Assembly: GCA_964291625.2 (NCBI GenBank) | Contig: OZ220089.1 | Location: 3,584,001-3,648,000, forward strand | Length of the DNA: 64,000 nt | Source of the DNA: Candidatus Latescibacterota bacterium | Lineage (GTDB): Bacteria; Latescibacterota; UBA2968; UBA8231 | Reading direction: 5' to 3' | Shown: one piece after another, positions 4,196 to 42,126 of the stretch | How the letters are laid out: every line of letters starts with the position of its first letter | How positions within the stretch are numbered: position 1 is the stretch's first letter | Notes under the pieces: generated by a model | The model's database searches: none | Told to the model about the DNA's origin: nothing | Seen by the model: only the letters and a program-made list of their open reading frames with translations | Made by a program: the position numbers and the translations under genes

Positions 4196-5083
4196 ATGCA
4201 TCACCGCCTCGGCCGCGACCGCATCGCCTACCGCTTCGACAAGGCCCTGGAGCCGGTCCTCGAGATCGACCCCGGCGACCGCGTCACCTTCGAGACCTTC
4301 GACGCCCGCACCGGCACCATCCGCTCCGACGAGGACCTCCTCGACCGGCCCCACCCGGCGGGCGCGAACCCGGCCACCGGCCCGGTCCTCGTGCGCGGCG
4401 CCGAGCCCGGGGACGGCCTGTGCGTCGAGATCGAGAGCATCGACCTGGCCGATGCCGGCTTCCTGGCGGTGAAGAAGGGGGAGGGGCTGCTGGCCGAGCG
4501 CGCCGGCCGCTACGCCACCCGCATCGTCCCCGTCTCGGACGGCGTGGCCCGCTTCGGCGATCTGCGCTTCCCGGTCCATCCGATGGTCGGCGTCGTCGGC
4601 ACGGCGCCGGCGGGGGAGCCGGTGTCGACCAGCTTCGCCGGACCCCACGGCGGCAACATGGACAACAAGCACGTCGGCCCCGGGGCACGGGTGCACCTGC
4701 CCGTGGCCGTTCCCGGCGCCCTCCTCGGCCTCGGGGACGTGCACGCCGCCATGGGCGACGGCGAGATCACCTTCATCGGCCTGGAGATCTGCGCCGAGGT
4801 CACGGTGCGGGTAGACCTGGTGAAGGGGGCGGAGACGAAGCGGCCCCTGGTGGAGACCGCCGACCACTGGATCACCACCGGGGAGGGCGACAGCCTGGCC
4901 GCCGCGGCAAGGCTCGCGGCCGGGGAGATGGTGGATCTCATGCAGCAGCGGCTCGGTCTCGGCTTCGAGGACGCCTACATGCTCTCCAGCGCCGTGGTGG
5001 ACGTGCAGATCTGCCAGTGCTGCGAGCCGGGGGCCTTCCCGGTGACGACGCGGGCGGTGGTGTCGAAGGAGGTCGTGCCCTGA
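4196..5083 (+). CDS. Acetamidase/formamidase family protein
   Basis: NPATGPV.V.GAEPGD, GPHGGNMDNK, GDVHAAMGDGE motifs. Confidence 0.9.
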   Translation: MHHRLGRDRIAYRFDKALEPVLEIDPGDRVTFETFDARTGTIRSDEDLLDRPHPAGANPATGPVLVRGAEPGDGLCVEIESIDLADAGFLAVKKGEGLLAERAGRYATRIVPVSDGVARFGDLRFPVHPMVGVVGTAPAGEPVSTSFAGPHGGNMDNKHVGPGARVHLPVAVPGALLGLGDVHAAMGDGEITFIGLEICAEVTVRVDLVKGAETKRPLVETADHWITTGEGDSLAAAARLAAGEMVDLMQQRLGLGFEDAYMLSSAVVDVQICQCCEPGAFPVTTRAVVSKEVVP

Positions 5084-7064: not shown

Positions 7065-10000
7065 TCAGACGTTGCGCAGCAGGATCAGGCTGTGGTGGTC
7101 GCGCCGCAGGTCGAACTGGGCGCCGAGGAGGTCGGCGAAGGGGCTGGAGGCGGCGGGTCCGCCGTCGATCGTCTCGATCTCCAGCTGGCGCACCGGCTGG
7201 CGGGCCCGGGTGAGGAGGTGATCGAGGGGCGCCAGGTACTCGGGGAGGCGCGGATCGTCGGGGGGGACGTGGAATACCAGCCGCCGGCCGTTTCGCCGGG
7301 ACTCCAGCACCAGCCGCGGCCCGTGGTAGACGAGATGGGTCCCCGCCACCCGGGGGGGCAGGGAGGATCGCAGGCCGTCCAGCCCGAGGCCGCAGGCGGA
7401 GGCCGGATCGGCCGCGGAGAGCCAGAACACGGCGTCCTCGGGCAGGCCTCGCGAGAGCAGGCGGAAGGCCCGGTGGCTGGCGAACTGCGGCCCCGGCACG
7501 CCCTCGAAGAAGTGGCCGGCCAGGATCTCGCCGGAGAGCTCCATGAGCCGCAGGGCGCGGAAGAGCCCCTTCCAGCGCAGGGCGGGCAGCTCCCGCTGCA
7601 GCAGCTCCCGGAAGAGGACGCCGTAGCGGTCGAGGAGGAGGCGCACGCGGTCCTTGTTGCGCTCCTCCTTCTCCAGCGGGTCCCCCGGCGGCGCCGGTTG
7701 CGGCAGCGGCTGCCAGCTTCCGGGGTAGACGGTGGACCCCCGCCAGCGCCCGGCGGCCCGGCGGGAGAGGCGGGCCCCGCGGGGACCCCGGTGGAGTCCG
7801 CCGGCGGGCCGGGAGCCCTCCGGGGCGGCGGGCGCCTCGGGCGGCTGGAAGCCGGTGTCCAGGCCGCGGCGCACGGCGGCGAAGGAGTCGTTGCCGACGC
7901 GGCCGGACCAGGCGCCCTGCCACAGGGCCGCGGCCAGGGCGGGAGCGTCGAGGCCGGCCAGCTCCTGGAGGGTGGAGAAGTCGTAGCGGCCGTGGGGGTC
8001 GGGGAAGAGGGAGGCGGCGCCGTTCCCGGAGCCGTCCGGCTCCTCCTCCTCGGCGGCGGGTCCGGCGAGCAGGTCGAGGTCGTGCTCGAAGCAGAAGGTC
8101 AGGCGCTCGCGGCCGCAGCCGACCCAGCGCAGCCCGCTCTCCTGCAGGACCCCGTCGAGGAGCGGCGTCTGGTAGGAGCGCATGCGCGCCGGCAGGATCT
8201 CGGTCTCCCACAGGCCGGCGGGGGCGCCGCAGCCGAGGAGGGGCTCGAGGCGGCGGCGCAACGCCTCGGGCGTGTCCCCCGGCTCGTGGAGGCCGTGGAA
8301 GACGGCCAGGAACAGGGGCAGCTGGTCCACCGGCAGGGCCTGGAAGGCCGGCGTCGCGTCGGCCCGGGCCATGCGCAGCAGGGACTCCAGGTTCTCCGCC
8401 TCGCAGACCTGGTCCTCGCCCTCGCCCTCGACCAGCGCCCCAATGACCACCGCCTGCTCGCCGGCCAGATCGTCGAGAACGGACGCCAGCAGCGGGTCCC
8501 CGAGGCCGAGGCTCCCCGCCAACTGGCCGCGGTCCACGGGGCCGTAGTACGACAGCCAGGAGGCCACGGCGGCCTCGAGGGGAGGCTCGTCCCGCGCTCC
8601 GGTGCCGTCCCCGGCGGTGCCGATTGCCGAAGCCGGGTCCTCCCGGGCTTCGTCCTCGGGCCCGACGCCGCCGCCGGCTTCATTCAGGCCCGGCTCCTCC
8701 CGTACAACCTCCGCGTCCGCAGCGGCTCGGGCGGCGACCTCCCGGCTCGGCACCTCCGGCCCCTCTTCCGCGTTCCCGCCGCCGCCGGCCTCGATCTCCA
8801 GGCCCGTGGCCCCGGGCCCCTCCTCTGCGTCCCCGCGAGCGCGGCCGTTCCCGGGCTCCACGCCCGGCCCCTCCTCCGCGTGCCCGCGAGCGCCGCCGTT
8901 CCCGGGCTCCACGCCCGGCTCCTCCCGCCCCTCCTCCGCGTCCGCAGCGGCTCGGGTGGCGACCTCCGGGCTCGGCACCTCCGGTCCTTCTGGCGCGTCC
9001 CCGCCGAGGCCCGGGGCGGCCTTGACCTCCACGGTCGCGCCGTCCAGCGTCCTCACCCGCGCCTCCGGCCACCAGGGGAATACGGCCAGCCGCTCCAGGG
9101 CCTGGCGCGCAACGGCCACCGGACCGGCCAGGGCCTCGGCCTCGATGCGCACGATCCGCCCCCGCCAGGCGCCCTCCTCGATCCATCCCTCCTCCCCGGC
9201 CTCGGCCGAGTCCCGCGCCGCGGCGGCGAGCAGGGCCTCCCACTCCTTCCACGGGACCAGCAGCCGCTCGTCCACCCAGTCGACCAGCTCGCGCGACTCG
9301 GACGGGGCGTACCCCGGGTGCAGGCGCTGGCGCTTCTCCTCGAAGCGCCGCACCACGTGGGCCGGGAGGGTGGGCCGCAGGTCGGGGGTGAAGACGACCT
9401 CGCGCAGCAGGTCGGAGCGCAGCTCGGAGGTCTGGCGGCCGGCGGCGGCGTCGCCGGCGTACATGTACTCGTTGACCTGTCCCCAGGCGACGGAGCGGGA
9501 GAACGGGCTCGGGCGGCTGGTGCGGCACTCCGACCACTCGATGGCGCCGGACTCCAGCTCGGAGAGGACGAGGCGCAGGGCGGGCAGGTCGAAGCCGTCC
9601 TGGAGGCAGGTGCGCCAGGCCTCGACGAGGATGGGGAAGTCCTCGTAGCGCATGACCGTGTCGAGGAGCCGCTGCGAGCGCAGACGGCTGAGCCACAGGG
9701 GCATGCGCTCGGTCAGACTGCGCCGGGTCAGGAGCAGGGAGCGCTGGGCGCACTCGCGGAAGCGGGCCCCGAAGTAGCCGGAGGCCTCGAGCCGCTGGCG
9801 CAGCAGCTCCTCGACGCGGCCCGAGGTGACCAGGCTGAGGATCTCCTCGGAGCCGGTCTCGGCGGGCAGGACGAGGACGATGCAGTCGTTGGAGGGATAG
9901 ACCTCGATGCGGCCGCCGAAGCGCTCCTCCCAGGCGGCGTCGAGGGCCATGGAGAAAGGCTGGTTGACGCACCCGCCCCAGAACGTGTGCAGCACCACCT

Positions 10001-15629: not shown

Positions 15630-16694
15630 TCAGGTTCGGTGGCTGTCGATGAGATCGGCGACTTCTCGGAGACGGTTCGCGACGGCCTTGAGCACGTCGT
15701 CGTACTCGACTCCGGTCGGGAGGGCAATGGGCACGAGGAGCGCCTGATTTTCTTCCAGGCACCCGGGCGGGTCGGTACGCTTGAGCGGCTCAAGGGCCCT
15801 GCGCGTTTCCGGCCAGCGGGCTTTGTGCCGCTCATCTCGCCATTGCTCGAAGAAGAGCCAGAGAGGGGTATCCGGATAGGCCCCCCGGGCCCACCAGTTC
15901 TGGCCGATGCCAAACCAGGCGCCCGCGCCTTTCAACGAGAGATACCGTCCATAGCCACGAGCGAGCGGGGTGACAATCAACCCCTTGATGTTGGCATGGC
16001 CTTGGGCCACGGCGCGCTCCGTGGCATCGTCCACGAGACGGCGCAGGCTGAGCAGCCGACGGGGGATCTCCGGCGCCAGTTCCTCCGGCCGGAGCGGCGG
16101 AAACCCACTCTCGTCATCCACCCGATGTGTCAGACCCCGCAACTGCTGTATCTCGTCTCTTGAGGCGGAATCGGCTGCAGCTTCGAGGCGGGCGAGCAGT
16201 TGCGTCCAGCTGATCAGCACCAGGTGCTTCCCCTCATCGGTCGCGCCGCTCTTGAGGGCAGCCTTGTCGAGGATGGAGAGCAGGCCGTCAGCGCCGGCCC
16301 GGCGGCACAGCTCCGGCCAGAGCGTCTCAAGCCTCGATTCAGGCGCGACGAAGAGAAGTGCCTTGCCTGGGGCCAACCTGTCGAGGTAGGCCTTCGGCTG
16401 GTTGGCAGTGAGCCCGGCCCAGAACTTGGCTTCGATTAGAAGGCACTCCTCGCCTTGTGCATCGAGAGCGACCAGGTCGGGCCGCGTCTCTCCCTCGCCG
16501 CTGACCTGGGTCTGGACCCTGGCAATCGTTCCGACATCCGCTCCCCCATCCCTGAGCAGATCCTCCATCACACGGAGCAACGGCTCGGACTTCAGGATGT
16601 AGCCGAGGGCTTCGACCGCGATGTCTTCGTGACTCTTCGCGAGTTTCCACGCGAGATGGGCGAGTAGTGTGTCGCCCTCAGTCTTGTGTTCCAT
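15630..16694 (-). CDS. PD-(D/E)XK superfamily nuclease-like protein
   Basis: RPDLV...LLIEAKFWAGLTANQP..Y catalytic pattern; AAGGAG SD. Confidence 0.7.
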   Translation of the reverse strand: MEHKTEGDTLLAHLAWKLAKSHEDIAVEALGYILKSEPLLRVMEDLLRDGGADVGTIARVQTQVSGEGETRPDLVALDAQGEECLLIEAKFWAGLTANQPKAYLDRLAPGKALLFVAPESRLETLWPELCRRAGADGLLSILDKAALKSGATDEGKHLVLISWTQLLARLEAAADSASRDEIQQLRGLTHRVDDESGFPPLRPEELAPEIPRRLLSLRRLVDDATERAVAQGHANIKGLIVTPLARGYGRYLSLKGAGAWFGIGQNWWARGAYPDTPLWLFFEQWRDERHKARWPETRRALEPLKRTDPPGCLEENQALLVPIALPTGVEYDDVLKAVANRLREVADLIDSHRT

Positions 16695-16736
16695 TGTGCT
16701 CCTTCACCTCAGCGGGGCCGGCGGAGGACGATCCGT

Positions 16737-19448
16737 TCACCCCTGTGCCCGCGTGTGCAAATCCCTCAGAATCGCCAGGTTCCGCCGGATGTCCCGCGCA
16801 ACCTCGGCGACCTCCTGAGCTACCAGGGGCGTGCGGCCGAGTTCCTGTTCCAGCGCGGTGGTCAACGGCAGGAAGAGCTTCGCTGATGGAGAGCCCTGGA
16901 GAAGCTCGATCATGGGCTCCGGGCCGAGCCTGATGCTGAAGTGCATCAGTTCGTAGGAGCATTCTTCAGGCAGAGTCTCAAACTGGGGAAGGATCTGGAG
17001 GATCTCCTTGATCTCCCTCAGGCAGCAGGTCGGATCACCGCTACGCAGGCTGGCCTTGGCCCGGGTGAGGTGACCGCGCCAGCGGTTCTCCAGCGATTGC
17101 GTGTTGCTCTCGGCGAGCACCCGGCCAGCGGTAGACGCGGCTGCATCGTACCGCCGGCAATCCAGCTCGAGGTCGGCTTTCTCGAGGAGCGCCTGCTCTA
17201 CCCGGCCACGCAGTGAGGGTGAATCATCTCCTCCGAAGCGCCGCACCACTTCCTCCAAGACAGCCAGGCCTTCCTCCTCCCGGTTCTGTTCCCCGAGTGT
17301 CATCCCCTTGTAGGTCAAGGCCACTGCCAGCGGCTCGATGAGGGCGGGGTTCTTGCTCTCACCGAAGCGCTGTATCACCTCCTCATAGGCGGCCAGCTCT
17401 TCCTCCGGTCGGTGCAGCTCGCCAAGTGTGGCGCCCCTGTTGACAAGAGCATTGGCAACCATCTGCAGATTGTCCGGTGTTTCGCTCTCCTCGAATCGGC
17501 GCACCACCTCCTCGTAGACGACCAGCGACTCCTGGGTCCGGCCCAGCGCGCCGAGGGCAGCACCCTTGTTGAGGAGGGCCCTGGCGAGCAACGCCAGATG
17601 TTCCTCCGTTGCGCTCTCTCCGAGCCGCCGTTCCACCTGCTCATACGCGGCCAGTGCCTCCTCCGGTCGGTTCAGGATGGCGAGGGCGACGCCCATGCAG
17701 AAGAGAGCTGCGGCGACCTGCTCAAGAACCTCTGGCAAGGGACACCCGCCGAATCGCCGCACCACCTCCTCAAAGACGGCCAGGGATTCCTCCGTCCGGT
17801 CCAGTTGGGCGAGAGTGACCCCCTTGCTGAGGAGGGCGCCGGTGACCATCTCCACATCCACCTCCGTATCCCCGCCGAATCGCCGTTCCACCTCCCCATA
17901 GGCAGCCAGTGCTTCCTCATGTCCCGCAAGTGCTTCCTCCCATCGGCCCAGTTCTCCAAGAGCCTCCCCTCTGCAGTAGTGGGCTATGGCGACCACTTGG
18001 GAGACCTCGGGTGACCGGCTGTTCCCTAACCGCCGCACGACCTCGTCCCAAGCGGCCAGCGACTCTTCCGGGTCTTTGGCCTGCAGCTCGAACGCTCTGT
18101 GCAACAGCGGCCTCGCAGCCGCCAGCTCTTCGAATTCGTCTTCGGGAAGGAGAGCAAGCAACTCTTCTCGGTGCCTGGCCAGGACCGGCAGTTGCGCCAG
18201 TTGGTCAAGTGCCGTCCAGTACAGCGATCGACGCTCCCCGTCCAGACCGTGCGCCTCCCGGGCGATTCCCTCGCCAATCTCCTTCAACTCGGACCGGGAG
18301 TAGAACGATTCCATGAACTTGATGAGGGCCTGGATCAGGGAATCCGGACCGCCATTGCGGCGCAACAGGTAGTAGATGTTGTACAGGCGCTCGGTCAGGT
18401 AGTACTGCTTGCGCCGGAGGGTGCCGCCCGTCACCTGGACGACGCCCCGCTCGGCGAGGCGGGTGAGCTGGGCGCTGCACTTGCTCGTGTCGACGCGGGA
18501 GCGCTCCGCGATCTCCCTCGTGGTCGCGGGCTTCCACAGGTCGGCCAGCGCTAGGTAGACCCGCCGCTCCTGGGCGGGGAGAGCCTCTATGTGGCCCTTG
18601 AAGTACTCCGTGTGCTCGTCCACGAGATCGAGGAGGTCGTCCATCAGCTCGCGGAAGGAGAGCCCCGCGCCGAAGCGGGCCACGATGGCGACGAGGCGGG
18701 GGCTGCCGCCGGTGAGGATCTCCAGAGGGCGGATCGTCTGGCGCGGGGGAGGCGAGCCGGAGAGCGTTGTCCACAGCTCGGTGCACTCCTCGGTGTGGAG
18801 AGGTTGCAGCGTGCGCACGCGGAACAGGTCGTAGAGGGCGTGGTCCGGTTCGTCGATCTCGGCGAAGCGGCTGGTGGCGCTGGCGAGCAGGATGATGCGC
18901 GGCTCGGTCTGGAGGATCTTGCGCAGCCGCCAGCTGGCGTCGCGGTCCGACATGTCACGGAAAATCGAATTCAGGTTTTCGACCATCAGTACGAGCCGCT
19001 TGCCCTCGCGGTCGGAGAAGTCGAGGAGAGCGCCGAGGCAGCGGTCGCCGAGCGTCTGTTCGTCCCGGATGGTGCGCAGGTCCTCCAGGGTGCGGTGCAA
19101 TTCCGGGGCATCGTCCCCGTCCGGCGCCTGATCCGCCAACCGGGAAAGGGCTTCGAGCCAGAACTCCCCGGCGCTGGTGACCTCGTAGCTCTCCTCGGCG
19201 AAGACGACGGGGAAGAAGTTGCGCGATAACTCCGGATCCCGGCGAACCTCGGCCGCCACGCGCAGGAGCAGGCTGGTCTTGCCGCTGCCGCGCGGGCCGA
19301 TGACGATCTGATGCTGGTTCGACGTGCCGGTGCATCCGCGCAGCATCTCGACCAGGGAGTCGAACTCGGCGGTGCGTACGCAGAACGAGGCCGCCAACTC
19401 CTCGTCGGTGAGGAAGCCCGGGTTGTACTTCCTGACGGGGGCGGTCAT
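16737..19448 (-). CDS. STAND-like P-loop ATPase + winged HTH + TPR array (904 aa)
   Basis: GPRGSGKT Walker A, VLMVEN Walker B, LTGGSPR, wHTH (ATTREIAERSR...CSAQLTRL), many ALxNKG..L..L.R.EE.L..YEEV.RRF TPR repeats; ATGA overlap with upstream gene. Confidence 0.85.
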   Translation of the reverse strand: MTAPVRKYNPGFLTDEELAASFCVRTAEFDSLVEMLRGCTGTSNQHQIVIGPRGSGKTSLLLRVAAEVRRDPELSRNFFPVVFAEESYEVTSAGEFWLEALSRLADQAPDGDDAPELHRTLEDLRTIRDEQTLGDRCLGALLDFSDREGKRLVLMVENLNSIFRDMSDRDASWRLRKILQTEPRIILLASATSRFAEIDEPDHALYDLFRVRTLQPLHTEECTELWTTLSGSPPPRQTIRPLEILTGGSPRLVAIVARFGAGLSFRELMDDLLDLVDEHTEYFKGHIEALPAQERRVYLALADLWKPATTREIAERSRVDTSKCSAQLTRLAERGVVQVTGGTLRRKQYYLTERLYNIYYLLRRNGGPDSLIQALIKFMESFYSRSELKEIGEGIAREAHGLDGERRSLYWTALDQLAQLPVLARHREELLALLPEDEFEELAAARPLLHRAFELQAKDPEESLAAWDEVVRRLGNSRSPEVSQVVAIAHYCRGEALGELGRWEEALAGHEEALAAYGEVERRFGGDTEVDVEMVTGALLSKGVTLAQLDRTEESLAVFEEVVRRFGGCPLPEVLEQVAAALFCMGVALAILNRPEEALAAYEQVERRLGESATEEHLALLARALLNKGAALGALGRTQESLVVYEEVVRRFEESETPDNLQMVANALVNRGATLGELHRPEEELAAYEEVIQRFGESKNPALIEPLAVALTYKGMTLGEQNREEEGLAVLEEVVRRFGGDDSPSLRGRVEQALLEKADLELDCRRYDAAASTAGRVLAESNTQSLENRWRGHLTRAKASLRSGDPTCCLREIKEILQILPQFETLPEECSYELMHFSIRLGPEPMIELLQGSPSAKLFLPLTTALEQELGRTPLVAQEVAEVARDIRRNLAILRDLHTRAQG

Positions 19449-20701
19449 CGCTGCGCGAGGGGGACGAAGTGCCCGCCGTGCCGGCCGCGCCACCAGTCTT
19501 CGAGCAGGCCGGAAACAAACCGGTAGCCGTCTCCGTGCCGCTCCAGGTACCCATCGTGTTCGAGCACGCGGAGCACGTCTTCGAGTGGGACCGGATCCGC
19601 CTCCGCCTCGTCCTTGGAGCCGCCTTGGAGATACTCGTGATACCGGCGGATCGTATCGCCACTCAGCAAGCCGTCATTGACGGCGGCTTCGGTCAGAATC
19701 TCCAGGGCGATCCGATACCCCTCCCTTCCGAGCACCATCCTCAGCCGGCCCTCGTAGTGCTCCAGGTCCATCTGCCCGCGGACGCCGAGCATCTCGTTGG
19801 TGTACACGCGCTCCACGTCTTCCATCGTGGCTTCGCGCCGGCCGGTGCGGCGCAGGTCGTCGTGGAGGTTGTCGAAGAACTGCTGCACGTGATGGGGGAT
19901 CAGACACCGCAGCCGCCGGCACATCTCCCGGCGGATGTCGAGGGGAAGGTCGAGGCCGTAGGTCCGAGCCAGTTCCGCGAGGCAGGCGGCTGCCGTCTCC
20001 TCGTCCCAGGGCTTCAGGTCGAAGGCCGAGTGGATGTTGGCGTGAGCGCTGAGCCCCGCCTGTTCCAGGATCGGCTCCAGGCTGACACTGCCGGCGAGGA
20101 TCAGGATGACCCGGTCCCGATGGGTCTGGCCGTTCTTGCGGAGCCAGGCCATGAACTCGTCCACCGCCTGCCGCCGCTCCGGGGTGATGCGGTGGTCAGG
20201 CCCCTTGAGCAGCCTGTTCACGAGGATCGGCAGCTCGTCGATGGCCAGCACCACAGGCCGGTCGCTCTCGGCCAGGGCGGCGAAGACCTCGTCCCCCTTC
20301 TGGCGCCAGCTTCCGGCGTCGATCCCAGCGCGGAGCTTGACCTGGATCTCACCGACGGCCACCGAGTCGACTCGATCGCCGATGTCTCTCAGGGTGTTGG
20401 CGAATCCGGCCTTGATTCCCGGCCAGGCGCCCCTCACCGACCTTGACCGGGCCCCGATCTCGGCGATGGCGTCGGCCGGGGCGACGGCGTCCTCCAGATC
20501 GACGAAGACCGTCTCGAAGCGGCCATCTTCGTCCAGGCGGCGCAGCAGCTCCCGGACAAGGCTCGTCTTTCCCATCCGCCGCTGGGCTGTCAGCAGGGTA
20601 TGCGTGCCGTTCCTGACCCGCTCGGCCAGGGCTTCGAGCTCCACCTCCCGGTCGAAGAACCGGTCCCCGTCCACCCAGTTGGCCCCTGCTTTCCTCAGCA
20701 T
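19445..20701 (-). CDS. AAA/archaeal-type P-loop ATPase (418 aa) with C-terminal winged-helix-like region
   Basis: FFDREVE, AQRRMGKTS Walker A, LAIDELP Walker B, LILAGS; C-terminal L..LEHDGYL...GYRF. Confidence 0.85.
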   Translation of the reverse strand: MLRKAGANWVDGDRFFDREVELEALAERVRNGTHTLLTAQRRMGKTSLVRELLRRLDEDGRFETVFVDLEDAVAPADAIAEIGARSRSVRGAWPGIKAGFANTLRDIGDRVDSVAVGEIQVKLRAGIDAGSWRQKGDEVFAALAESDRPVVLAIDELPILVNRLLKGPDHRITPERRQAVDEFMAWLRKNGQTHRDRVILILAGSVSLEPILEQAGLSAHANIHSAFDLKPWDEETAAACLAELARTYGLDLPLDIRREMCRRLRCLIPHHVQQFFDNLHDDLRRTGRREATMEDVERVYTNEMLGVRGQMDLEHYEGRLRMVLGREGYRIALEILTEAAVNDGLLSGDTIRRYHEYLQGGSKDEAEADPVPLEDVLRVLEHDGYLERHGDGYRFVSGLLEDWWRGRHGGHFVPLAQR

Positions 20702-20715
20702 CTCCGTGCCCTTCC

Positions 20716-20779
20716 CAACGTATCCGTTGGCAACGATCTTGTTGGCAACGAATTTGTTGGTAAGGCCGGGAAATGTCAA
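20716..20779 (-). promoter_or_regulatory. Sigma70-like promoter (TTGACA-17-CAAATT) overlapped by three tandem CAAC-N6-GTTG palindromes
   Basis: tgtcaa at 20774-20779; palindromes at 20716-20729, 20731-20744, 20746-20759 (15-bp period), just upstream of the ATPase start. Confidence 0.7.
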
Positions 20780-20849: not shown

Positions 20850-21601
20850 TCAGATCCAGTCCTGGGGATCTTGTGCCAGGATGACTTCGCTCAACGGGGC
20901 AAAGAGGACCGGCCGGTAGTGTAGAAAGGGACCAGCCGGCCCGTCTCATCCGGCTTCAGTTCAGAGCGCATCCAGTCACTCAGCATCTCCGGATCGCCGG
21001 CATCCTCGACTTGCCTCCACTCTTCCCCCAGGCCGTTCCATCGTTTCTCGCGCGCCGACCGGAGCCGTTCCGAGTTGAGGTTCAGAATCTCGATGGTGCG
21101 AGTCACGCGGTCGGGGGGAAAGCCGGCCGTGCCGCATGCGCTTTCATCGGCCTCGATCAACCCGTTGTCGATCACCCGCAGAAGCGACGGCAACGCGGGA
21201 AGGCCCCGGGGGTCGACAAAGCGCTCGTCGCTCTGATTCCCCTTCGCCTGGCCGCAGCTCGGTTTCCCGCGCTTGCGATTGCCCTCCTCCGAGTCGGGAA
21301 CCGAAAGGGCTGTACCAGGACAGCAGGCGACCATGTTGGCTATGTCGAGGGCCTTGGCTTGGCCCGATTCGGCGTCGCTCTGCGGGATCACGTGCTCCAC
21401 CTGACGATGCCGTCCACCAATCGCAATCTCGCAGTAGGCGCAGAGGCCGCGCTGGCTCAGGGTCAGTGATTCCCTGAGTTCCTCGTACGATGCTCCGGAA
21501 GTGTGAGAACGGAACTCGACCCAGTTTGCCTTCGCGCCGACGGAAGCGAGGTATGCGGCCAGGCCGGGAGTCGGGTCGTTGACTTCGCGGATCTTCTTCA
21601 C
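20850..21601 (-). CDS. ptuB: PtuB/TIGR02646-type HNH endonuclease; probable one-base frameshift near 20905
   Basis: Q.GLCAYCE, VEHVIPQS, NMVACC, SCGQAK; GTGA overlap with ATPase; as written stops at 20891, shifted frame continues FAPLSEVILAQDPQDWI* to 20850. Confidence 0.75.
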
Positions 21602-22899
21602 CTCGACTCGAACCGCTGGCTGAACAGCTTGCGCCGCCGGATCTCGAGGTCGGCACGATCGAGGGCCGGATCCTGGGGGGACATGTCCTCCAAGCGCGTC
21701 CGCAAGTCCTGGGCTTCCTTGGATTCCCATTGTTCCTCCCTGATCAGATGCCGGTAACGATCCAGGGTCTTTGTGAAGTCGTTCTCTGGCGGCCGTTCGC
21801 CTACGCCCATCACCACGGATAGAACGTCGCCGGCCTCGGCTCCGAACGTCGGCCCGGCCGGGGCCCCGGCGACGACGCGGTCGCCGTCGTGAGAGAGTTC
21901 CACGATCCCGTGAGGCTCGACAGTAGTCAGTACCTGCGGGCTGTGGGTTGATACGATGAACTGGGAGTTCGGAAACGTGCGCCTGAGATCGCCAAGGATC
22001 CGCTGCTGCCAGCTCGGATGCAGATGCAGTTCCACCTCGTCGATCAGGACGATCGCTTCGGATTCGAGGGGGTCGTCGAGATGGGGGTTTCCCTGGGCCA
22101 TTCGGCGAGCGAGGTCCGCGGCGAGGGCAAGCATTATGCGGTAGCCGCCGCTCAACTGGTCGAGGGAGAGCTTCTTCATCCCTCCTTGTTGCGGTCTCAC
22201 GGATACTACAAGCTGGAGCGGATTCAGCTCGGTGCGCGGTTCGGACACCTCAGGGAGCATGGAGGTAATCGCCTGGCGAACCGTGGACAGATCGTCCAAC
22301 TGGTATTCGAAATCGCGCCGCTCCTTCTGTTCCCTCAGCTCCTCGTCTTCCTTGATAAAAAACCAGCCCAGGAGGCCCTTGAAGTCCGTGCGGGCAGACA
22401 AGGCTCCTTCCAAGGCAGCGAACCGGACGAATGGACTGACAGTCTTGGGTTACCGTGGCGCCTTCCGCACACCCGAGACGTTGCGGTCGGTGCTGTAGAA
22501 GGCAACGATCGGCAGATCGCCAACTGGCTCTTGTACGTCCGCATTCCGGGGCAGGCCCATGCTTTCCAGCAACCTGCCAAGGCCAACCAGTCTCTTGGCC
22601 ACCGCCCTGTCATCACCCTGCTTTCCCCCTTGTCGTTCCCAGGTGGTTCCATCGGTTGCGGTGAGCGATACGCGCGGAGCCTCCGCGCCAGTGCGTTGAT
22701 CCTCCTCGGAGAAGTCAAGGCCCGATCTGTCCTGAGGCAGCAAGTCCGAGATCGCCCCCAGGCCCACGGCGATCGCGCTCAAGACACTTGTCTTGCCCTG
22801 TCCATTGGGGCCGTAGAAGACCGTCAGGGACGGGTCGAGGGGGAGCGTGAGCTGCTCGATGGCGCGGTAGTTCTCGATCTCCACGGATTTCAGCTTCAC
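21598..22899 (-). pseudogene. ptuA: PtuA-like ABC/AAA_21 ATPase (Septu-like) with in-frame TAA at 22450-22452
   Basis: IENYRAI, GPNGQGKT, LSGGYR signature, LIDEVELHLHPSWQ, STHSP; both halves lie in the same frame. Confidence 0.8.
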
Positions 22900-22990: not shown

Positions 22991-23719
22991 TCACTCCACC
23001 GAGCCCTGCCCCAGCGGCTTGACCACCAACTCCGAGATCACCACCCGCGGAGGCAGCGCCGCTACGTAGATCACCACGTCGGCGATGTCCTCGGGTTGCA
23101 GGATCCGCGCCTTGTGCTCGTCGGAGACCTTCACCGGCCGCTGGTCGAGGATGGGGGTGTTGATCTCGCCGGGGGAGATGACGCTGGCGCGGATGCCGTG
23201 CTTCGCCTCCTCGAGGTTGACGGTCTGGGTGACGACGGACATGGCGTGCTTGGCGGCGGAGTAGGCGGCGCCGGCGAGGACGCCGGGGGCGGTGCCGGCC
23301 ACGGAGGAGATGGCGATCACGAGGCCGTCCCGCTGGCGGCGCATGATGGGCAGGACCTCGTGGAGGGTGTTGAAGGCGCCGGTGGCGTTGACGTCCATCT
23401 GCAGGTCCCAGTTCTCCGGGGAGAGCTTCTCCAGGGAGCGGTCGACGACGTTGACGCCGGCGTTGTTGACGAGCACGTCGACGCGGCCGAACTCGCCCAG
23501 GGTCCAGTCGACGACCTCCTTCACGCGGGCCCGGTCCCGGACGTCGCCGGCCATGGGGTGGGCGCCGTCGCCGGCCTTGTCGCAGGCGGCCCTCAGCCGG
23601 GTCTCGTCGCGGCCCATGGTCACCACCTGGGCGCCCTCGCGCACGCAGCCCTCGACGATGGCGGCGCCGGCGCCGGAGCCGCCGCCGGTGACGATGAATA
23701 CCTGGTCCTTGAGCTTCAT
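22991..23719 (-). CDS. SDR family oxidoreductase
   Basis: TGGGSGAG, NNAG, YSAAK, ISPGEINT. Confidence 0.9.
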   Translation of the reverse strand: MKLKDQVFIVTGGGSGAGAAIVEGCVREGAQVVTMGRDETRLRAACDKAGDGAHPMAGDVRDRARVKEVVDWTLGEFGRVDVLVNNAGVNVVDRSLEKLSPENWDLQMDVNATGAFNTLHEVLPIMRRQRDGLVIAISSVAGTAPGVLAGAAYSAAKHAMSVVTQTVNLEEAKHGIRASVISPGEINTPILDQRPVKVSDEHKARILQPEDIADVVIYVAALPPRVVISELVVKPLGQGSVE

Positions 23720-24555
23720 TCCACCACCTCCTCGCCGAAGATCTGGGTGCGGTTCATGATGCGGCGCTGATCGTCGGGGAAGGGCAGACGCCGGTGGCTG
23801 GTGGGGCGGTTGTCCCACATCACCAGGTCGCCCACCCGCCACTGGTGGGTCCAGACGAACCGCGGCTGGTCCATGTGGGCGTAGAGTTCGGCGAGGATGG
23901 CGCGGCTCTCCTCCTCGCTCACCCCGTGGATGTGGTGGGTCAGGTGAGGGCTCACGTAGAGGGACGGCCGCCCGGTCTCGGGATGGCGCCGCACCACGGG
24001 ATGGATCGTCGGCTCGGGGGGGTTCTGCTCGTCCACGTGGTGGCGGTGCACGGCGCGCAGCTTGCGCACCTCGGCCTGGCGCTCCGGCGGCAGGGCGTCG
24101 TACGCGGCGCGGCCGTCGCACCACTGGGTGTCGCCGCCGGCGGGGGGGATCTCCACGGCGTAGAGCAGCGAGATCGTCCCCGGCCTGGGCAGGTAGGAGA
24201 GGTCGGAGTGGAAGTCGATCAGCTCGCTGCCGAGGGCGCCGATGGGCTCGCCGTTCTCCTTCACGTTGGAGATGATGAAGATCTCCTTGACGCGGCGCTC
24301 GCGCTGCTTGCGCACGTGCTCCACGGGCCGGCCGAAATACGACGTGAAGCGCACCTGGTCCTCGTCGGTGATGCGCTGGTCGCGGAAGACGAGGACGCAG
24401 TGTTCGAGCAGGGCGGCGCGCACCTGCTTCACCTGCTCCGGGGTCAGCTCGCGGCCGAGGTCGAGGCCGCGGATCTCGGCGCCGAGAGCGCCGCCGGAGG
24501 GCCGAACGCGCAGCTCCGCGCCGGTGGTGACGGTCATGCCGTTCTCCTCAGACAT
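23716..24555 (-). CDS. TauD/TfdA Fe(II)/2-oxoglutarate dioxygenase
   Basis: LGAEI.G.DL, FHSD, GGDT, HPVV..HPETGR, WDNR..SHR. Confidence 0.9.
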   Translation of the reverse strand: MSEENGMTVTTGAELRVRPSGGALGAEIRGLDLGRELTPEQVKQVRAALLEHCVLVFRDQRITDEDQVRFTSYFGRPVEHVRKQRERRVKEIFIISNVKENGEPIGALGSELIDFHSDLSYLPRPGTISLLYAVEIPPAGGDTQWCDGRAAYDALPPERQAEVRKLRAVHRHHVDEQNPPEPTIHPVVRRHPETGRPSLYVSPHLTHHIHGVSEEESRAILAELYAHMDQPRFVWTHQWRVGDLVMWDNRPTSHRRLPFPDDQRRIMNRTQIFGEEVVE

Positions 24556-26723: not shown

Positions 26724-28373
26724 TCAGGCGGCGCGGGCGGAGGAGAACCCGGTCAGCAGCCGCACCAGGGCCGGCTCCGGGCGGCCGCGGCGGGAGAGCA
26801 GGGCGTCGAGGGGGGTCCGGCCGCGGCGGTCCCGCCGACCCGGGTCGGCCCCCTCCAGCAGCAGGAAGGCGACCGCGTCGGCGTCGCGCCGGGCCGCGGC
26901 CCGGTGCAGGACCGTGGCGCCCGCGTCTCCGGCGGCGTCGATGTCGGCGCCGGCCTCCAGCAGCAGCTGCATGGCGGCGATCACGTCGGCGCCGCGGCCT
27001 CCCTTCAGGGTGTGGTGCAGGGGCGTCTCCCCCTGACGGTCGCGGGCGTCGACGCGGGCCCCGCGGTCGAGGAAGAGCGCCATCGTCTCGAGGAACCCGG
27101 CCTTGGCCGCCGCGTGCAGCGGACAGCGCCCGTCGGCCTGCGGGGCGTTGACGTCGGCGCCGAAGTCGAGGAATGCCCGGGCCAGGGCGGGGCCGCCGCC
27201 GCGGCTGCGGATGTCGGCGGAGCACGAGAGCCGCACCCAGCGCGAGTCCCCCATGTTGGCGGCGCTCGCCGCCAGCAGCCTGGCGATGGCGCCGTCGACC
27301 ACCCAGGGGCCGGGGATCACCTCGGCCGGGTCGGCGCCGTGATCGATCAGCAGCCTCACCAGGTCGGCGCGCCGGATGCGGGCGGCGCGGTCGAGCAACC
27401 CGCGGCTGTGGGGGCGCACCTCGGCGCCCCGGTCCAGCAGCAGCTCCGCCGCCTCGGCGCGGCCGGCGCCCACGGCGTGGGCCAGCGGCGTCACCGGCCA
27501 CACGTCCTCGGCGCGCTGGGTCTCGTGGACGCGGGCCGGGGTCGGCGTCGAGAAGGCGGCGCAACTCGGCGATGTCCCCGAGGAAGGCGGCGGTGTGGAC
27601 GTCGATCCGGGCGCCGCGGGAGATCAGCAGGTCCGCCGTCTCGCGGTGGCCCCGCCAGAGGGCGGCGCAGAGGGGGGTCAGCATCAGGTCGGCGCCCACG
27701 GCGTCCAGCCGGGAGGCCGTCGAGCTGAGGCCCGGCTCGCAAGGGTCGGCGCCGCTGATCGAGAAGGAAGCGGGCGATCCGCAGCCGCCCGCGCCAGGCC
27801 GCCTCCCAGAGCAGGGTGCGGCCGCCGGGACCGCTGATCTTCGGCATCAGGGGATCGTCCTCGAGGGCGGCCTCCAGCCCCGGCCGGTCGTCCGCGGCGA
27901 TGCGGGCGACAGGCTCGCGGAAGAGCCTGGGAGCGCACGCAGCGCAGGTCCCGCGGCATCAGGGGCCGGCGCTCCTCCTGGTCGTTGACCACGTGCCCGG
28001 CCAGCCGGCGCAGGGCGGCCATCACCTCGGCGGCGGCATCGGCGGGCGCGCCCACCTGCCGCAGGGCCGCCTCGAAATGCTCCAGCCAGCGCTCCGAGTG
28101 CCCGGGGGTGATGAACAGGTGGCCGTGGAAGCGGCGCATGCCGGTGCGGGCGGTGCGGGAGTAGCCCGGGGGCCCGCCCAGCCACTCGACGAAGAACTCC
28201 TTCACCCGCTCCCGGCCCTGGCGCAGGTGGAAGTCGTGGAAGAGGGGCTTCAGCTCGCCGTCGGCGGCGATGGCGTCGTAGAAGGCGTCGATCAGGCGGT
28301 GCACGCCCCCGGCGCCTCCGAGGCGGCCCAGCAGCGACGGGTCGGGGTGGAAGGGGGTGCGGCGGGCGGTCAC
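26724..28373 (-). pseudogene. Group II truncated haemoglobin fused to ankyrin repeats; three frameshifts (~27925, ~27755, ~27540), pseudogene or read errors
   Basis: LGGAGGVHRLIDAFY, EWLGGPPGYS, MRRFH, WLEHF globin motifs, then TLLWEAA, TPLCAA, TPLAHA, CPLHAAA, TPLHH, TVLHRAA ankyrin repeats in successive frames. Confidence 0.75.
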
Positions 28374-28375
28374 GC

Positions 28376-29334
28376 TCAGTCCCGGCGCAGCCACAGGCGG
28401 ACGTAGTGGCGCCGCTCGGCCGCCTCCGGGTGATCGGTGAAGGCGGTGCGGTTGTGCAGGATCCAGTGGTTGTTGGTGAACAGCATCTGCCCCGGCCGCA
28501 GGTCGAACTCGACGCGCATCCCGGGCCGCGCCAGGACCTCCTCCACGGCCTCGAGAAGCTGGCCCTGGCCGGGGGACAGGGCCTCGCCGGCGCGCTCCTG
28601 GCCGACCTCGATGTAGTAGGCCATGTAGCGCATGGAGAGCTCGCCGTCGTCGCGGGCGAAGAGCCGGCGGCGGGCGATGGGAGGCTCCCCCGGGCCCTCC
28701 TGGCCGCGGCGGTCGAACCAGAAGGCGCCGTGGAGGGTTTCGGGGTCGACGTCGGGCAGCAGCTCGTTGTAGAGGGTCAGGGCGTTGACCAGCTGGCTGC
28801 GGCCCCCCTCGAGGGCGGCGCGCCGGCAGAGGAGGCCCACGAAGTCGGGCAGCAGGTCGTTGAAGGCGTTGTCCGTGTGGAAGGTGCTCTCGGCGCGGGT
28901 CACCGAGAACCGGGCGCCGTCGGTGACGGAGCGGCCGGTGTCGCGCACGTCGTAGAGCAGGGTGCCGGCCACGTCCTGGGCGAAGGGGCGGCCGAGGAGC
29001 CGGCCGAGGGCCCAGTAGGCGGAGACGGCGGCGCCGCCGAAGCGGGACTCGTCGAGGCCTTCGACGATGGCGAACCCGCGGCCCTGGTCCAGCTCCTCGC
29101 GCACCGGGGCCAGCTGACGAGCGCAGGAGGGCAGCCGGGGGCGGTCGAGGCTCGGCGAGCCGGAGAGGGCCTCGCGCGACGGGTCCGGCTGCTCGGCGCA
29201 GGACGGCAGGGGGAGGCCCTCCAGCTCGCGCAGGGAGTCCTCGCCGAGGACGGTGGTCCAGGCCGAGGCGTCGCCGGCGGTGGCCGCGGTCCACACGCGG
29301 GGCCGCGGATCGGCTCCAGGGTCTGGCTCTGCAT
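28376..29334 (-). CDS. TauD/CAS-like Fe(II)/2OG dioxygenase; one-base frameshift near 29300
   Basis: FHTD, VGLLC, GGRSQ, NNHWILHNRT, RHYVRLWL; ATG at 29334 is out of frame by one base at a G/C run. Confidence 0.8.
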
Positions 29335-29446
29335 GGGGTGAGAAGATAGGGAGGCGCGTTGCCTTCGGCTCGAACGGTCCGGTGGTGCGCCGCCGGCAGG
29401 AGCCGGCTATCTTCAGGCCCCACGCACCCACGGATCGAGGGCGGAA

Positions 29447-30577
29447 ATGACCACGCCAGCCGAGCAGACCATCCCACCCGGGGCCGCGCCCTGCCGCGAT
29501 CTCCTGCGGCCCGAGGTCCTGGCCGCCTTCGACCGCGACCGCTTCGAGCGCGAGGGTTACTGGGTCTGGGACGGGGTCCTCACCGACGAGGGCCGCCGCC
29601 GCTGGACGGCCTCCCTGCAGCGGCTCCAGGCGATGAACGACGCCCTCCTCACCGGCACCGACTGGGGCGCCGTCGACTACGCCGCCCGCGGCCTCCCGGC
29701 CCCCGATCCGAAGACCTGTACCCCGGAATCCCTGGCCGCCTGCTGCGGCGGCTCCGAGCAGATGCGGGTCATCCAGCTCACCCCCGGCCTGCGCGACTAC
29801 ATGAAGGACCAGGGCCTCTTCGGGCCCGGCACCGTCCCCGGGGCCGACGGCCGCGAGTGGCAGGGGGTCATGCCCGAGTACTTCTCCCCCGCCTACGACG
29901 ACTTCATCCTCGACGCGACCACCACCCATCCGCAGATGATGGACCTCCTCGGCAAGCTCCTGGGGCCGCGGGTCCTGCTCGATCACATCCTGATGCTGAA
30001 CCGCCCGCCGGGGTCGACGGGCCGTCGCTGGCACGCCCACGGCTACCGCCAGGGCCAGCACGAGACCGAGGACGTCCAAGGCCGCGACAACGACCGCCCG
30101 CCGAGCCGGGAGTACTTCCCGCTCCAGTGCGTGCGCACCCTCTGCTATCCCGAGGGCATGGGCGCCGACGACGGGGGCGGCGAGCTGGCCGTGGTCCCCG
30201 GCGCCCACCTCTACCGCAGCCCCTACCTGTGGAACACCGGGCGCAGCGAGTTCGACGAGGAGTTCCAGGCCGGCTGGATGCGGGGCCGGGTCCACGCCTT
30301 CACCGGCGAGCCCCTGCGCATCGAGGTCCTCTCCCTGAACCCGGGCAGCATGGTCTCCTTCGTCCACCACATGCCCCACCGCGTCGGCTTCCGCGACGAC
30401 GACGCCCCCACCCGCTGGGGGCTGCTGATGGCCTACCGCACGCCCGACCCGGACGAGGCGGAGACGGCCCGCTGGAACGAGGGGGTCCCGGTCCACTGGG
30501 CCGATCGCCAGGAGGCCGCCGGCCGGATCACCGAACCGATGCGCCGCGTCTTCGAGGGAGACAACCCGCCGGCCTGA
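29447..30577 (+). CDS. Phytanoyl-CoA dioxygenase (PhyH)-like protein with variant HxH motif
   Basis: FEREGY.V.DGVL, WHAH, GGELAVVPGAH, PGSMV....PHR. Confidence 0.75.
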   Translation: MTTPAEQTIPPGAAPCRDLLRPEVLAAFDRDRFEREGYWVWDGVLTDEGRRRWTASLQRLQAMNDALLTGTDWGAVDYAARGLPAPDPKTCTPESLAACCGGSEQMRVIQLTPGLRDYMKDQGLFGPGTVPGADGREWQGVMPEYFSPAYDDFILDATTTHPQMMDLLGKLLGPRVLLDHILMLNRPPGSTGRRWHAHGYRQGQHETEDVQGRDNDRPPSREYFPLQCVRTLCYPEGMGADDGGGELAVVPGAHLYRSPYLWNTGRSEFDEEFQAGWMRGRVHAFTGEPLRIEVLSLNPGSMVSFVHHMPHRVGFRDDDAPTRWGLLMAYRTPDPDEAETARWNEGVPVHWADRQEAAGRITEPMRRVFEGDNPPA

Positions 30578-35100: not shown

Positions 35101-35398
35101 GGAGCGGCTCGGGCTGCCCGAAGGCCCCCAGTTGCAGCAGAACGCCCCCAATCCCTTCAACAGCGGCACCGTGATCTCCTGGTTCCTGCTGCAACCGGGG
35201 TTGGCGCGCCTGGAGGTGTTCGCCCTGACCGGGCAGCGGGTGGCGGTGCTGCACCAGGGGCCGAAGAAGCCGGGGATGCACCGCGTCCACTGGGACGGCC
35301 GCGACGAGCAGGGCCGGCCTCTGGCCAGCGGGATCTACTTGTACCGGCTGGTGACGGCCGGGTCCGTGCAGACGCGCAAGCTCACCCTGCTGAGGTAG
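32189..35398 (+). CDS. Secreted metzincin-like protease with LRRs, four Big_1-like Ig domains, dockerin-like EF-hands and FlgD/T9SS-like CTD
   Basis: Signal peptide; HELGHTFGVAH; internalin-like LRRs; SGDxQxG...V.V.DQNG repeats; DFDGDGEIGFSDF; NAPNPFN...GIYLYRL...TRKLTLLR. Confidence 0.85.
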   Translation: MAERESKGVPLGLCMAVLCLLLWPPGSVRGTPSSVDGVPFYLNPGPWERDPAGLPAAKPLAGLNAGEPRTVRMIYFLPNDRQARPDIDATFDTLIRQVQQSYAEQMENHGFGRRTFRFETDGDGRALVHHVKGEFDDGHYRTNMWDTVWEEVTELFDLTENIYLVSLDVSDAPYCGLGASWGPEGGIVVIPYDIFENEHPWACGNVAVIAHELGHTFGVAHDYFRDAVRSPSSYHTDWMVNSFAAAEWLAAHRYFNVGRSYPHRDRPTTIRMLTPSAAPPRSIRLRFEVTDSDGLHQTQLFNSTGEACDFEGVSGERATVEFVTTEVTEAPGNEVELRVVDVHGNVVSDRFSIDILPLLDPEDVSIPDANLAAVVLETLDLPLGNSVTQLDMLRVRRLQGSSRQITDLAGLEHAVNMIDLDLGGNEIHDITPLAGLIILEVLGLWYNRISDVQSLMQMNSLQRLWLSGNSVSDLSPIAGLTNLKVIRLEGNPIAEKWPLYRLLQRNRFLEIDIDTRTLGMVSGDGQEGAAGAALAEPLSILVLDRYGDPLARTEVTFAVTGGGGTLSVTTATTDDDGRASTTLALGSRPGTNTVEARVSGLEPVTFSAVGLAVLTAVVGISGDEQQGAAGAQLPEPFVVEARDQNNNPLTGVEATFAVSAGGGTLSVETATTDAHGRATTTLTLGSGPGINTVTARVGELQPVTFSATGLAIPTTLSGISGDELQGAAGAPLDEPFFVEVRDQNGNLLAGIEVAFEITSGDGMLSAATVITDDDGRASTTLTLGSRPGTNTVEASVSGLEPVTFTATGQAVPQTLAIVSGDEQQGTVGAALAEGLVVSVRDQNGDPFAGATVTFEVTSGDGMLSAATAATDEDGRASTTLTLGRDPETVTVAAAVAGLEPVTFTATAKASPDFDGDGEIGFSDFFLFAEAFGGDDPSFDLDGSGAVDFADFFLFAERFGRPERSKLLALARERLGLPEGPQLQQNAPNPFNSGTVISWFLLQPGLARLEVFALTGQRVAVLHQGPKKPGMHRVHWDGRDEQGRPLASGIYLYRLVTAGSVQTRKLTLLR

Positions 35399-39621: not shown

Positions 39622-39656
39622 AACCTCTTGTCACAGACTCCAAAAGGGAGATTGCC

Positions 39657-40454: not shown

Positions 40455-40922
40455 GAGTCCTCGTCATCCTGATGGCTTCAATGTTGACCTCTCAGGTAGC
40501 ATATGCTCAATCGCGGGTGACAGACCTTACAACCCTCAGTGTTGTCCTGGTGACCTTTGCGGACGATGTGCCCCACGGGTACACCCGACGGCAACCCACA
40601 GCCGGTATGCCACACACGCTGGTTGCAGGAGATCACGCCTACACCATGGACGACTTCGAGATCAAATTCGGCGTGTCGGGGACGTTCGACAACGAAGAAG
40701 GCATCACCCTTGACAAGGACGAGGAGTTGCCAGCCGTCTACGGTAGTGTCAAGGATTACTTTGATGAGATGTCCGGGGGGAGAGCTTGACTTCGATGTCC
40801 GGATTGTCAATAAGGAAGATCCCAGCGATACGGATCACCCAGAGTGGATTGAGATGCCTGAAGACCGGGCATATTACACAGCCCAAGGCATCAATCAGTC
40901 GGAATTCTTGACCCATGCCTTA
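40451..40922 (+). pseudogene. Truncated M6-like protease head (frameshift in the G run at 40775-40780, cut at ~40922)
   Basis: VVLVTFADD.P.G, YTMDDFE, YGSVKDYFDEMSGG match the N-termini of 42942 and 47234; ATGA-coupled to upstream partner. Confidence 0.8.
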
Positions 40923-41269: not shown

Positions 41270-41332
41270 CCGCTGATCTCCGGTCTGAGGGCGATGCCGG
41301 CTCTCAGGGACCGAATTCGAGCAAAAAACCAA

Positions 41333-42103: not shown

Positions 42104-42126
42104 GAAACCAACCAAGGAGGCTCCTC

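Follow-up and report, generated by a model that had tools for sequence, protein, structure and literature searches.

Does a pair of overlapping ATPase genes in a genome of a Candidatus Latescibacterota bacterium encode a defence system and, if so, which of the neighbouring genes belong to it? The question is raised by a 64,000-nucleotide stretch of contig OZ220089.1 (positions 3,584,001 to 3,648,000; hereafter the window), in which gene A, for an ATPase, precedes gene B, for an ATPase with a wHTH (winged helix-turn-helix) domain and a TPR array, with a nuclease gene, C, on one side and genes of a Septu system on the other. A preliminary description of the window, made from its sequence, proposed that A, B and possibly C form a defence operon like paired sensor and helper nucleotide-binding leucine-rich repeat (NLR) proteins. 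The evidence below puts the chance that A-B is a new two-gene defence module, and a probable unnamed anti-phage system, at slightly better than even. For this candidate module, we infer the defence function, the factor that binds a repeat array in the leader of A, the ligand of the TPR region and the output.

The preliminary description held that a 418-residue ATPase is coupled to an ATPase-wHTH-TPR protein through an ATGA overlap, and this overlap, with the ATG of B on the TGA of A, was read at 19448-19445. The architecture described for B also stood; its length did not, as B has 903 rather than 904 residues. A genome scan gave 80 related loci, for which flanks of 8 kb were examined. B followed A in 78 of the 80, the two exceptions having a shortened A, so the translationally coupled pair is conserved. 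These loci span at least 10 phyla and come from Latescibacterota, Binatia, Acidobacteriota, Gemmatimonadota, Alpha- and Gammaproteobacteria, Chloroflexota, Thermodesulfobacteriota, other 'delta' lineages, Rhodothermales, Spirochaetia and Opitutales. When the 1,070 called open reading frames (ORFs) in the flanks were clustered, no family besides A and B recurred in more than 10 of the 80 loci, and the pair is therefore self-contained. Of 168 genomes from the phylum, 35 contained gene A, as did 3 of the 10 from the genus, and a single genome could have as many as four copies. We conclude that A-B is a horizontally mobile, self-contained two-gene operon, carried with its own promoter and operator array.

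Look-ups of A returned one weak plasmid match (25% identity), one partial phage match (27% identity) and, among viral contigs, no relative of A, with two peptide patterns being the only things searched there. This near-absence from phage and plasmid records says nothing about defence in either direction. Separately, partial tblastn matches, or B in two pieces, point to a shortened A or a split B in loci L038, L059, L062, L073, L076, L026, L027, L052 and L080; these forms suggest that the pair decays frequently among its relatives.

Protein A matched the Pfam family ATPase_2 (PF01637) at 34.5 bits against a cut-off of 33.2, thus passing the gathering score, and the corresponding fold was found as well. 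In an alignment of 40 sequences, G44-K45 of Walker A and D155-E156 of Walker B, both canonical motifs, were invariant, as were many residues of the C-terminal winged helix, a very conserved domain. An AlphaFold model built with this alignment as input had a mean pLDDT (predicted local distance difference test) score of 88.6, and its best Foldseek matches were two archaeal ATPase_2 structures, 2qen (E 2.4e-11; template modelling scores 0.56/0.65) and 2fna (E 1.3e-9), followed by the archaeal Orc1/Cdc6 structures 2qby, 2v1u, 1w5s and 1fnn. Sequence identity of A to these fold matches was 11-17%, and a search of solved structures by sequence gave only a marginal match to 2qen (E 0.079). The family is large: more than 2,216 homologues of A were found, of which the best 120 were 68-91% identical to A, and a profile search of 1.84 billion representatives gave 573 clusters (50% identity) at E≤1e-30, almost all of 400-430 residues. 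A 444-residue version of A that starts at a TTG was rejected as an artefact because this TTG belongs to the TTGACA box of the leader and homologues begin at the ATG at 20701.

Protein B scored above the Pfam gathering cut-offs for AAA_16 (37.1 bits; cut-off 32.6), for ORC-CDC6-like (33.7 bits; cut-off 27; residues 4-70 only) and for TPR_12 (1.7e-16), TPR_1, TPR_2 and other TPR families, and its sequence matches among solved structures were to TPR proteins. Matches to nSTAND1 (22.4 bits; cut-off 27.1) and nSTAND_NTPase5 (18.4 bits; cut-off 34) fell under the Pfam cut-offs. Alignment of the ATPase domains of A and B with hhalign gave a probability of 70% (E 4e-5, 188 columns), and the two domains are distant paralogues of the ORC/Cdc6-like (ATPase_2/AAA_16) kind. 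The atypical V-E-N sequence that had been noted at the Walker B position of B is real, and it was invariant in 69 of 69 aligned B proteins and in 34 of 34 in a second alignment. Invariance across the 69 sequences marks V-E-N as a fixed deviation rather than decay.

Conservation along B was uneven. Mean identity to 68 homologues, in 30-residue windows, was 0.49-0.83 for residues 1-390, 0.26-0.43 for residues 391-840 and 0.51-0.61 for residues 841-900; the middle segment, which is the TPR part, also has many alignment gaps and varies in length. At the DNA level, no tandem repeats were found in the TPR region of B. Among the 120 listed relatives of B, lengths ranged from 513 to 1252 residues, and additional Pfam domains were of the TPR type or absent. 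A sensor with no fused effector had been proposed, and this held beyond the window: neither B nor the Pfam lists of these 120 relatives contained a nuclease, protease, SIR2 or TIR effector domain. Judged by its sequence, B looks like a sensor, in which a conserved ATPase-wHTH module carries a hypervariable TPR array.

Upstream of A we found a feature that the preliminary description did not contain, a leader array of four repeat units with a 15-bp period (Table 1). Of 79 related loci, 58 have TTGACA within 150 nt upstream of A, and 78 have at least one site with the core GTTG(C/G)CAAC, allowing at most one mismatch, in the same interval. Two sites exactly 15 bp apart occurred in 45 of the 79 loci, compared to 4 of 16,576 control windows from the same loci. 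In most loci the first of the four units lies 59-69 nt ahead of the start codon, a fixed distance, and this layout is found upstream of A in nearly all loci, relatives at 47% identity included. In the 5.9-Mb genome that contains the window, the tandem pattern occurs once, at the leader of A, and single sites are not enriched (16, compared to 12 for a reversed control pattern). The core is palindromic, variants among loci include GTTGCCAAC, GTTGGCAAC, GTTTGCAAAC and GATGGCAAC, and in some lineages one unit is swapped for another palindrome (for example, GTTTGCAAAC in L044, L046 and L047), a pattern that fits a dimeric DNA-binding protein. The array accompanies the operon in different phyla and occurs nowhere else in the genome, so the simplest source of its binding factor is the operon itself, through the winged helix of A, the wHTH of B or both. 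The 9-mer motif and this operator were not described in the papers we found.

A reading of the leader repeats as an RNA element was rejected. No Rfam family was assigned (4 matches at E 0.3-0.8, all eukaryotic and well under gathering scores), and RNAalifold placed 0 consensus pairs in 40 leaders. Folding a single leader gave -22.3 kcal/mol with a z of -2.9, as palindromic repeats would in any case. A generic promoter and terminator scan, which covered this leader, found 0 promoter-like sites and about as many terminator-like sites as expected by chance. The number of copies of the operator-like unit varies between lineages: expanded leaders with 5-6 near-identical 15-bp copies occur in L004 (~7910-8000, AAATTCGTTGGAAAC type) and L017 (~7920-8000, GGAATCGATGGCAAC type).

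The neighbourhood of the pair bears directly on the question of defence. We counted defence genes from tblastn and PADLOC results only, in a scan that covered 136 of 171 selected neighbours plus clusters seen in at least two loci. A PtuA label on L031 and L057 was a clustering artefact, as tblastn finds no PtuA in either, and both were excluded from the counts. Proteins of named systems lay within the 8-kb flanks in 25 of the 80 loci, a count that rises to 36 once lone methyltransferases, HNH or NYN genes, PDC candidates and a PtuA remnant are added. In 10 loci, A-B is embedded in another system: between HmaC and HmaB in seven (L008, L009, L012, L026, L033, L045 and L065), inside a type I restriction-modification (R-M) operon beside AbiE in two (L016 and L028) and between BrxC and PglX in one (L017). 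Septu PtuA and PtuB were near the pair in seven loci. The defence neighbourhood claimed for the window recurs in some of its relatives. In Payne et al. (2024; bioRxiv 10.1101/2024.01.29.577857), embedding in Hma is the criterion used to nominate and validate new defences.

We compared A and B with named systems using PADLOC 2.0.0 (PADLOC-DB of 2023), NCBIfam, Pfam and PHROGs. None of the four assigned either protein to a named system, in agreement with the earlier statement that no name could be given to the arrangement; PADLOC returned only weak, P-loop-level matches to mad8 and a non-significant PDC-S01 match for A (E 0.0086, 13.2 bits). No description of the pair was found in the papers retrieved on STAND/TPR proteins, on Hma-embedded systems, on PF01637 with defence and on nSTAND/conflict systems, the supplements of these papers being outside the scope of the search.

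Avs/AVAST and other antiviral STAND NTPases with TPR-like sensors are among the closest known systems. B shares with these proteins the succession of a P-loop ATPase, a winged helix and a long, variable TPR-like array that could serve as a sensor, as well as its occurrence in defence islands. However, no Avs model of PADLOC matched at E≤0.01, the nSTAND1 match of B is below its cut-off and the ATPase is AAA_16/ORC-CDC6-like; A-B also has no fused effector in the window copy or in the 120 listed relatives, has an obligate second, paralogous ATPase gene and has an invariant V-E-N at Walker B of B. In outline, B is like an Avs-type sensor, but it has neither the profile nor the effector of one. 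The archaeal ATPase_2 proteins 2qen and 2fna and Orc1/Cdc6 share with A the order of an AAA+ core and then a winged helix at the C terminus, and Orc1/Cdc6 proteins bind repeated origin boxes, but A is only 11-17% identical to them, belongs to a bacterial family, is paired with a TPR-bearing paralogue and has no link to a replication origin.

BrxC/PglY and HmaC (DUF499) belong to the same broad ATPase class and have wHTH domains (PMC12839542), and A-B lies physically inside their systems in eight loci (seven Hma and one BREX). By contrast, A and B have no PADLOC match to either and, in most loci, no methyltransferase, PglZ or helicase partner. The candidates HEC-01 to HEC-09 and PDC of Payne et al. 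(2024) were nominated on the same type of evidence, namely embedding in Hma, and the HEC systems described there comprise ABC ATPases with TOPRIM, NERD or PIN partners, GmrSD-like proteins and RNases; apart from the PDC-S01 match of A noted above, neither A nor B matches a HEC or PDC model of PADLOC. Paired sensor/helper NLRs of plants likewise come from two adjacent genes for related NTPases, of which one member has diversified in its sensor region and the other is conserved, but A-B comes from another ATPase clade and lacks coiled-coil or TIR signalling domains, so that the likeness is by analogy alone and the label 'NLR-like sensor/helper' can be used for A-B only as an analogy.

These observations can be assembled into a working model of the candidate module. 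At rest, a winged-helix protein encoded by the operon (A, B or an A-B complex) would sit on the GTTG(C/G)CAAC repeats, which are spaced at 15 bp and overlap the -10 box as well as the start of transcription and the site of ribosome binding, and the bound protein would keep expression low. During invasion, the hypervariable TPR array of B would bind a protein of a phage or other mobile element, by analogy with Avs proteins (Lee et al., 2026). Binding would alter the nucleotide state of the B ATPase; this domain has an intact Walker A and, where hhhhDE is expected, V-E-N, and it probably acts as a switch that hydrolyses slowly or not at all. B would then recruit or activate the catalytically competent A, and the two would form an ORC-like hetero-oligomer on DNA. 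The output would not come from a fused enzyme; most likely, it would be ATP-driven binding or remodelling of DNA that blocks replication or transcription of the invader, or else an arrest of cell growth. This output step is the weakest part of the model and is a guess.

Structure prediction of the A-B complex gave a median score of 0.45 compared to 0.00 for the best control, with at least 79% of contacts common between runs and a pLDDT of at least 73 for the partner. In this score range (≤0.60) lay only 18 of 157 solved complexes, together with both mismatches that passed. The prediction weakly suggests a direct contact between A and B. In a variant of the model, the ORC-like heteromeric ATPase would itself be the effector: a sequence-specific, iteron-binding loader or clamp, parked on the promoter array as a decoy, could, once the TPR sensor has captured an invader protein, be released or re-targeted to invader DNA (such as phage or plasmid iterons or origins) and block replication with no nuclease involved. 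We regard this variant as improbable, at roughly one chance in eight or so in our judgement.

The nuclease gene, C, is the neighbour whose membership matters most. It starts 42 bp past the stop codon of B, close to the ~40 bp first given, and is preceded by the ribosome-binding site GAAGGAG. C belongs to a family of 1,063 homologues for which Pfam has no model, and searches of Pfam, PADLOC, NCBIfam and PHROG gave no match at E≤0.01; solved structures gave nothing by sequence. P72-D73, E88 and K90 were invariant in 34 of 34 homologues (33-85% identity). In a model with a pLDDT of 82, the N-terminal domain aligned best by VIA-align with R.BspD6I, EcoT38I, N.BspD6I, FokI, PaqCI, Can2 and McrC, at Z 5.2-7.9, which is under the caution line of Z 8; Foldseek gave weak matches to MspJI, YaeQ and EcoT38I (E 6e-3 to 5e-2), and the ESM Atlas gave a PDDEXK_4 lead carried by 12% of the members of one cluster. 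With an invariant motif and restriction enzymes as its best fold alignments, C can reasonably be called a PD-(D/E)xK nuclease, as had been proposed.

Could A, B and C then be a single system of sensor, helper and nuclease, with the TPR sensor passing its signal by way of the partner ATPase to the stand-alone nuclease? C is co-oriented with the pair, at a distance of 42 bp with its own ribosome-binding site and with no obvious terminator between B and C, it has the motif and probable fold of a nuclease, and three genomes from the genus (G000, G166 and G167) retain A-B-C. Distribution tells otherwise. C adjoins A-B in only 2 of the 80 loci; within the phylum, where C is in 16 and A in 35 of the 168 genomes, the two are adjacent only in those three same-genus genomes, and in G142, G123, G102, G050, G061 and G048 they are widely separated or on separate contigs. 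Homologues of C stand beside other defence genes (LeoA/BC, type I R-M, Hhe/PDC-S37, GmrSD-like and mad3) in 7 of the 10 loci inspected for C (L101-L110), and genome G160 has a remnant of C with no A-B. The part of the preliminary description that made the nuclease a component of the system is thus not upheld: C is a separate neighbour rather than a core part of A-B, and the three-gene reading is very improbable. By the company it keeps, C looks like a candidate stand-alone, single-gene defence nuclease. The same low probability attaches to the proposal that A-B is no stand-alone system but an accessory module that adds an ORC-like sensor to methylation-based systems (Hma/DUF499, BREX and type I R-M). 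The ten embedded loci favour it, as does the statement in PMC12839542 that HmaC, BrxC and BrxB-type proteins are also ORC/Cdc6-like or STAND-like ATPases. However, 70 of the 80 loci, including the window, have no Hma, BREX or type I R-M host system within 8 kb, A-B carries its own promoter and operator everywhere and, as reported by Payne et al. (2024), independent and unrelated defence genes are commonly embedded in Hma.

A rival that we consider unlikely, though less so than those above, is that A-B has no role in defence and is an autoregulated selfish or addiction module, or a regulator of the MalT/LAL kind whose TPR array senses a cellular or host-derived ligand. Toxin-antitoxin and regulator operons typically have operator arrays that overlap their own promoter, housekeeping genes flank more than half of the loci, the A-B proteins have no effector domain and repeat proteins of the TPR, ankyrin, WD40 and cadherin types abound in the genome that contains the window. 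Yet no conserved target genes neighbour A-B, and the tandem operator is found once in the genome, so that a regulator would have no regulon. The hypervariable TPR array, the patchy occurrence in multiple copies and the recurrent placement inside defence systems are more in keeping with immunity genes.

Several points weigh against reading A-B as a new defence module. No named defence gene was found in the flanks of 55 of the 80 loci, and many loci are flanked by housekeeping genes (xanthine dehydrogenase, sulfatase, pyrroloquinoline-quinone dehydrogenase and ankyrin). The figure of 25 in 80 is a raw count with no matched background control, and it comes from a scan of part of the neighbours. 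The output is a guess because A, B and the listed relatives have no effector domain, and the signal for contact between A and B could reflect likeness to solved ORC-type assemblies. In addition, the pair may be among the 198 defence-associated STAND clades reported by Lee et al. (2026). The defence context is partial.

Septu can be separated from the A-B module as well. The two genes beside A were recognised by PADLOC as PtuB (9.3e-48) and PtuA (6e-90, with both halves matched), and PtuB also matched NCBIfam PtuB (1e-21, 77.8 bits, below the 150-bit cut-off) and TIGR02646 (61 bits; cut-off 52). PtuA is cut by a single in-frame TAA, which may be a sequencing error; apart from this stop, its two parts run collinearly with the uninterrupted PtuA of L003 (51% and 72% identity). 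In the two same-genus relatives, Septu is reduced to PtuA remnants, of 29 residues in L001/G167 and of residues 80-271 in L002/G166, and it seems to be decaying at this site while A-B-C remain intact. Septu as a part of the A-B system was rejected because only 7 of the 80 loci have it, with no fixed side relative to the pair.

PtuA, PtuB, A, B and C are five genes of the same orientation, inside a dip in guanine-plus-cytosine (GC) content. The GC fraction is 0.61-0.69 at ~15-23 kb, compared to 0.72-0.77 in most 1-kb bins of the flanks, so the low-GC island reported beside Septu-like genes is borne out. In the genus, the corresponding slot lies between SDR and aminotransferase genes and its cargo differs by genome: G000 and G167 carry A-B-C and a decaying Septu, with a PIN gene in addition in G167; G166 carries A-B-C with an AbiEii-like gene and an Mrr_cat gene; and G160 carries 2.7 kb with an MBL-fold gene, two uncharacterised ORFs and a 25-residue remnant of the 3' end of C (L111, G160:C18:5500-12000, ~4297-4371), which adjoins the conserved aminotransferase gene, and has no A-B. 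Different cargo in one slot, with replacement evident in G160, is the turnover expected of a defence hotspot. The low-GC stretch at 15.6-22.9 kb is best explained as a variable defence hotspot occupied by three modules that are independent of one another: Septu, A-B and C.

If A-B does protect against phages or plasmids, it would add a widespread system, with 573 clusters in at least 10 phyla, mostly in uncultured organisms. Its logic would differ from that of Avs in using two paralogous ORC-like ATPases rather than one STAND protein, no enzymatic effector and an operator array that moves with the operon and implies sequence-specific DNA binding. The invariant V-E-N of B would offer a natural test case for a division of labour between 'switch' and 'motor' ATPases. 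Apart from the pair, the annotation of the region is corrected, with nuclease C and Septu as separate tenants of the hotspot, and C represents a large family that has no Pfam model and itself resides in defence islands. Coordinates of the features discussed are collected in Table 1.

Table 1. Features of the A-B locus and its neighbours, in window coordinates.
Feature	Coordinates	Strand	Description
TTGACA, -35-like box	20774-20779	minus	read directly from the leader
CAAATT, weak -10-like box	20751-20756	minus	after a 17-nt spacer from TTGACA
Repeat array, candidate operator	20715-20764	minus	four units, 15-bp period
Array unit CTTACCAAC	20756-20764	minus	
Array units GTTGCCAAC and GTTGCCAAC	20741-20749 and 20726-20734	minus	
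Half-site GTTGG	20715-20719	minus	abuts the ribosome-binding site
Gene A	19445-20701	minus	418 aa; ATPase_2-type (ORC/Cdc6-like) AAA+ ATPase with C-terminal winged helix
Gene B	16737-19448	minus	903 aa; ORC/Cdc6-like ATPase, wHTH, TPR array and conserved tail
B, Walker A codons	19275-19298	minus	invariant GxxGxGKT
B, V-E-N (Walker B position)	18975-18983	minus	residues V156-E157-N158
B, wHTH (TrmB-type)	~18384-18572	minus	residues 293-350
B, hypervariable TPR array	~17169-18131	minus	TPR repeats from ~residue 466
B, conserved C-terminal tail	~16749-16928	minus	last 60 residues
Gene C	15630-16694	minus	354 aa; probable N-terminal PD-(D/E)xK-type nuclease domain and C-terminal alpha/beta domain
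C, catalytic residues	D73 16476-16478; E88-x-K90 16425-16433	minus	
PtuB (Septu, HNH endonuclease)	20891-21598, exact start uncertain	minus	PADLOC, NCBIfam, TIGR02646
PtuA (Septu, ABC-type ATPase)	21598-22899	minus	PADLOC, both halves; in-frame TAA 22450-22452

Elsewhere in the window, eight consecutive ORFs at 38797-49645 on the plus strand (274, 265, 202, 138, 329, 1134, 308 and 803 residues) have mostly 56-61% GC per 1-kb bin and no Pfam match at E≤1e-5, and a UPF0236 gene follows at 49744-51177. This region looks like a second foreign island, with a function that is not assignable from Pfam. Large repeat proteins of a eukaryote-like type are encoded at 26724-27503, 32189-35398, 51231-55880 and 55893-61421; they comprise one protein with ankyrin repeats, one that is LRR/Big_1/invasin-like, one of the fn3/cadherin type with 1549 residues and one of 1842 residues with many WD40 repeats and Big_1. 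Two genes for TauD-family dioxygenases lie at 23716-24555 and 28376-30496.

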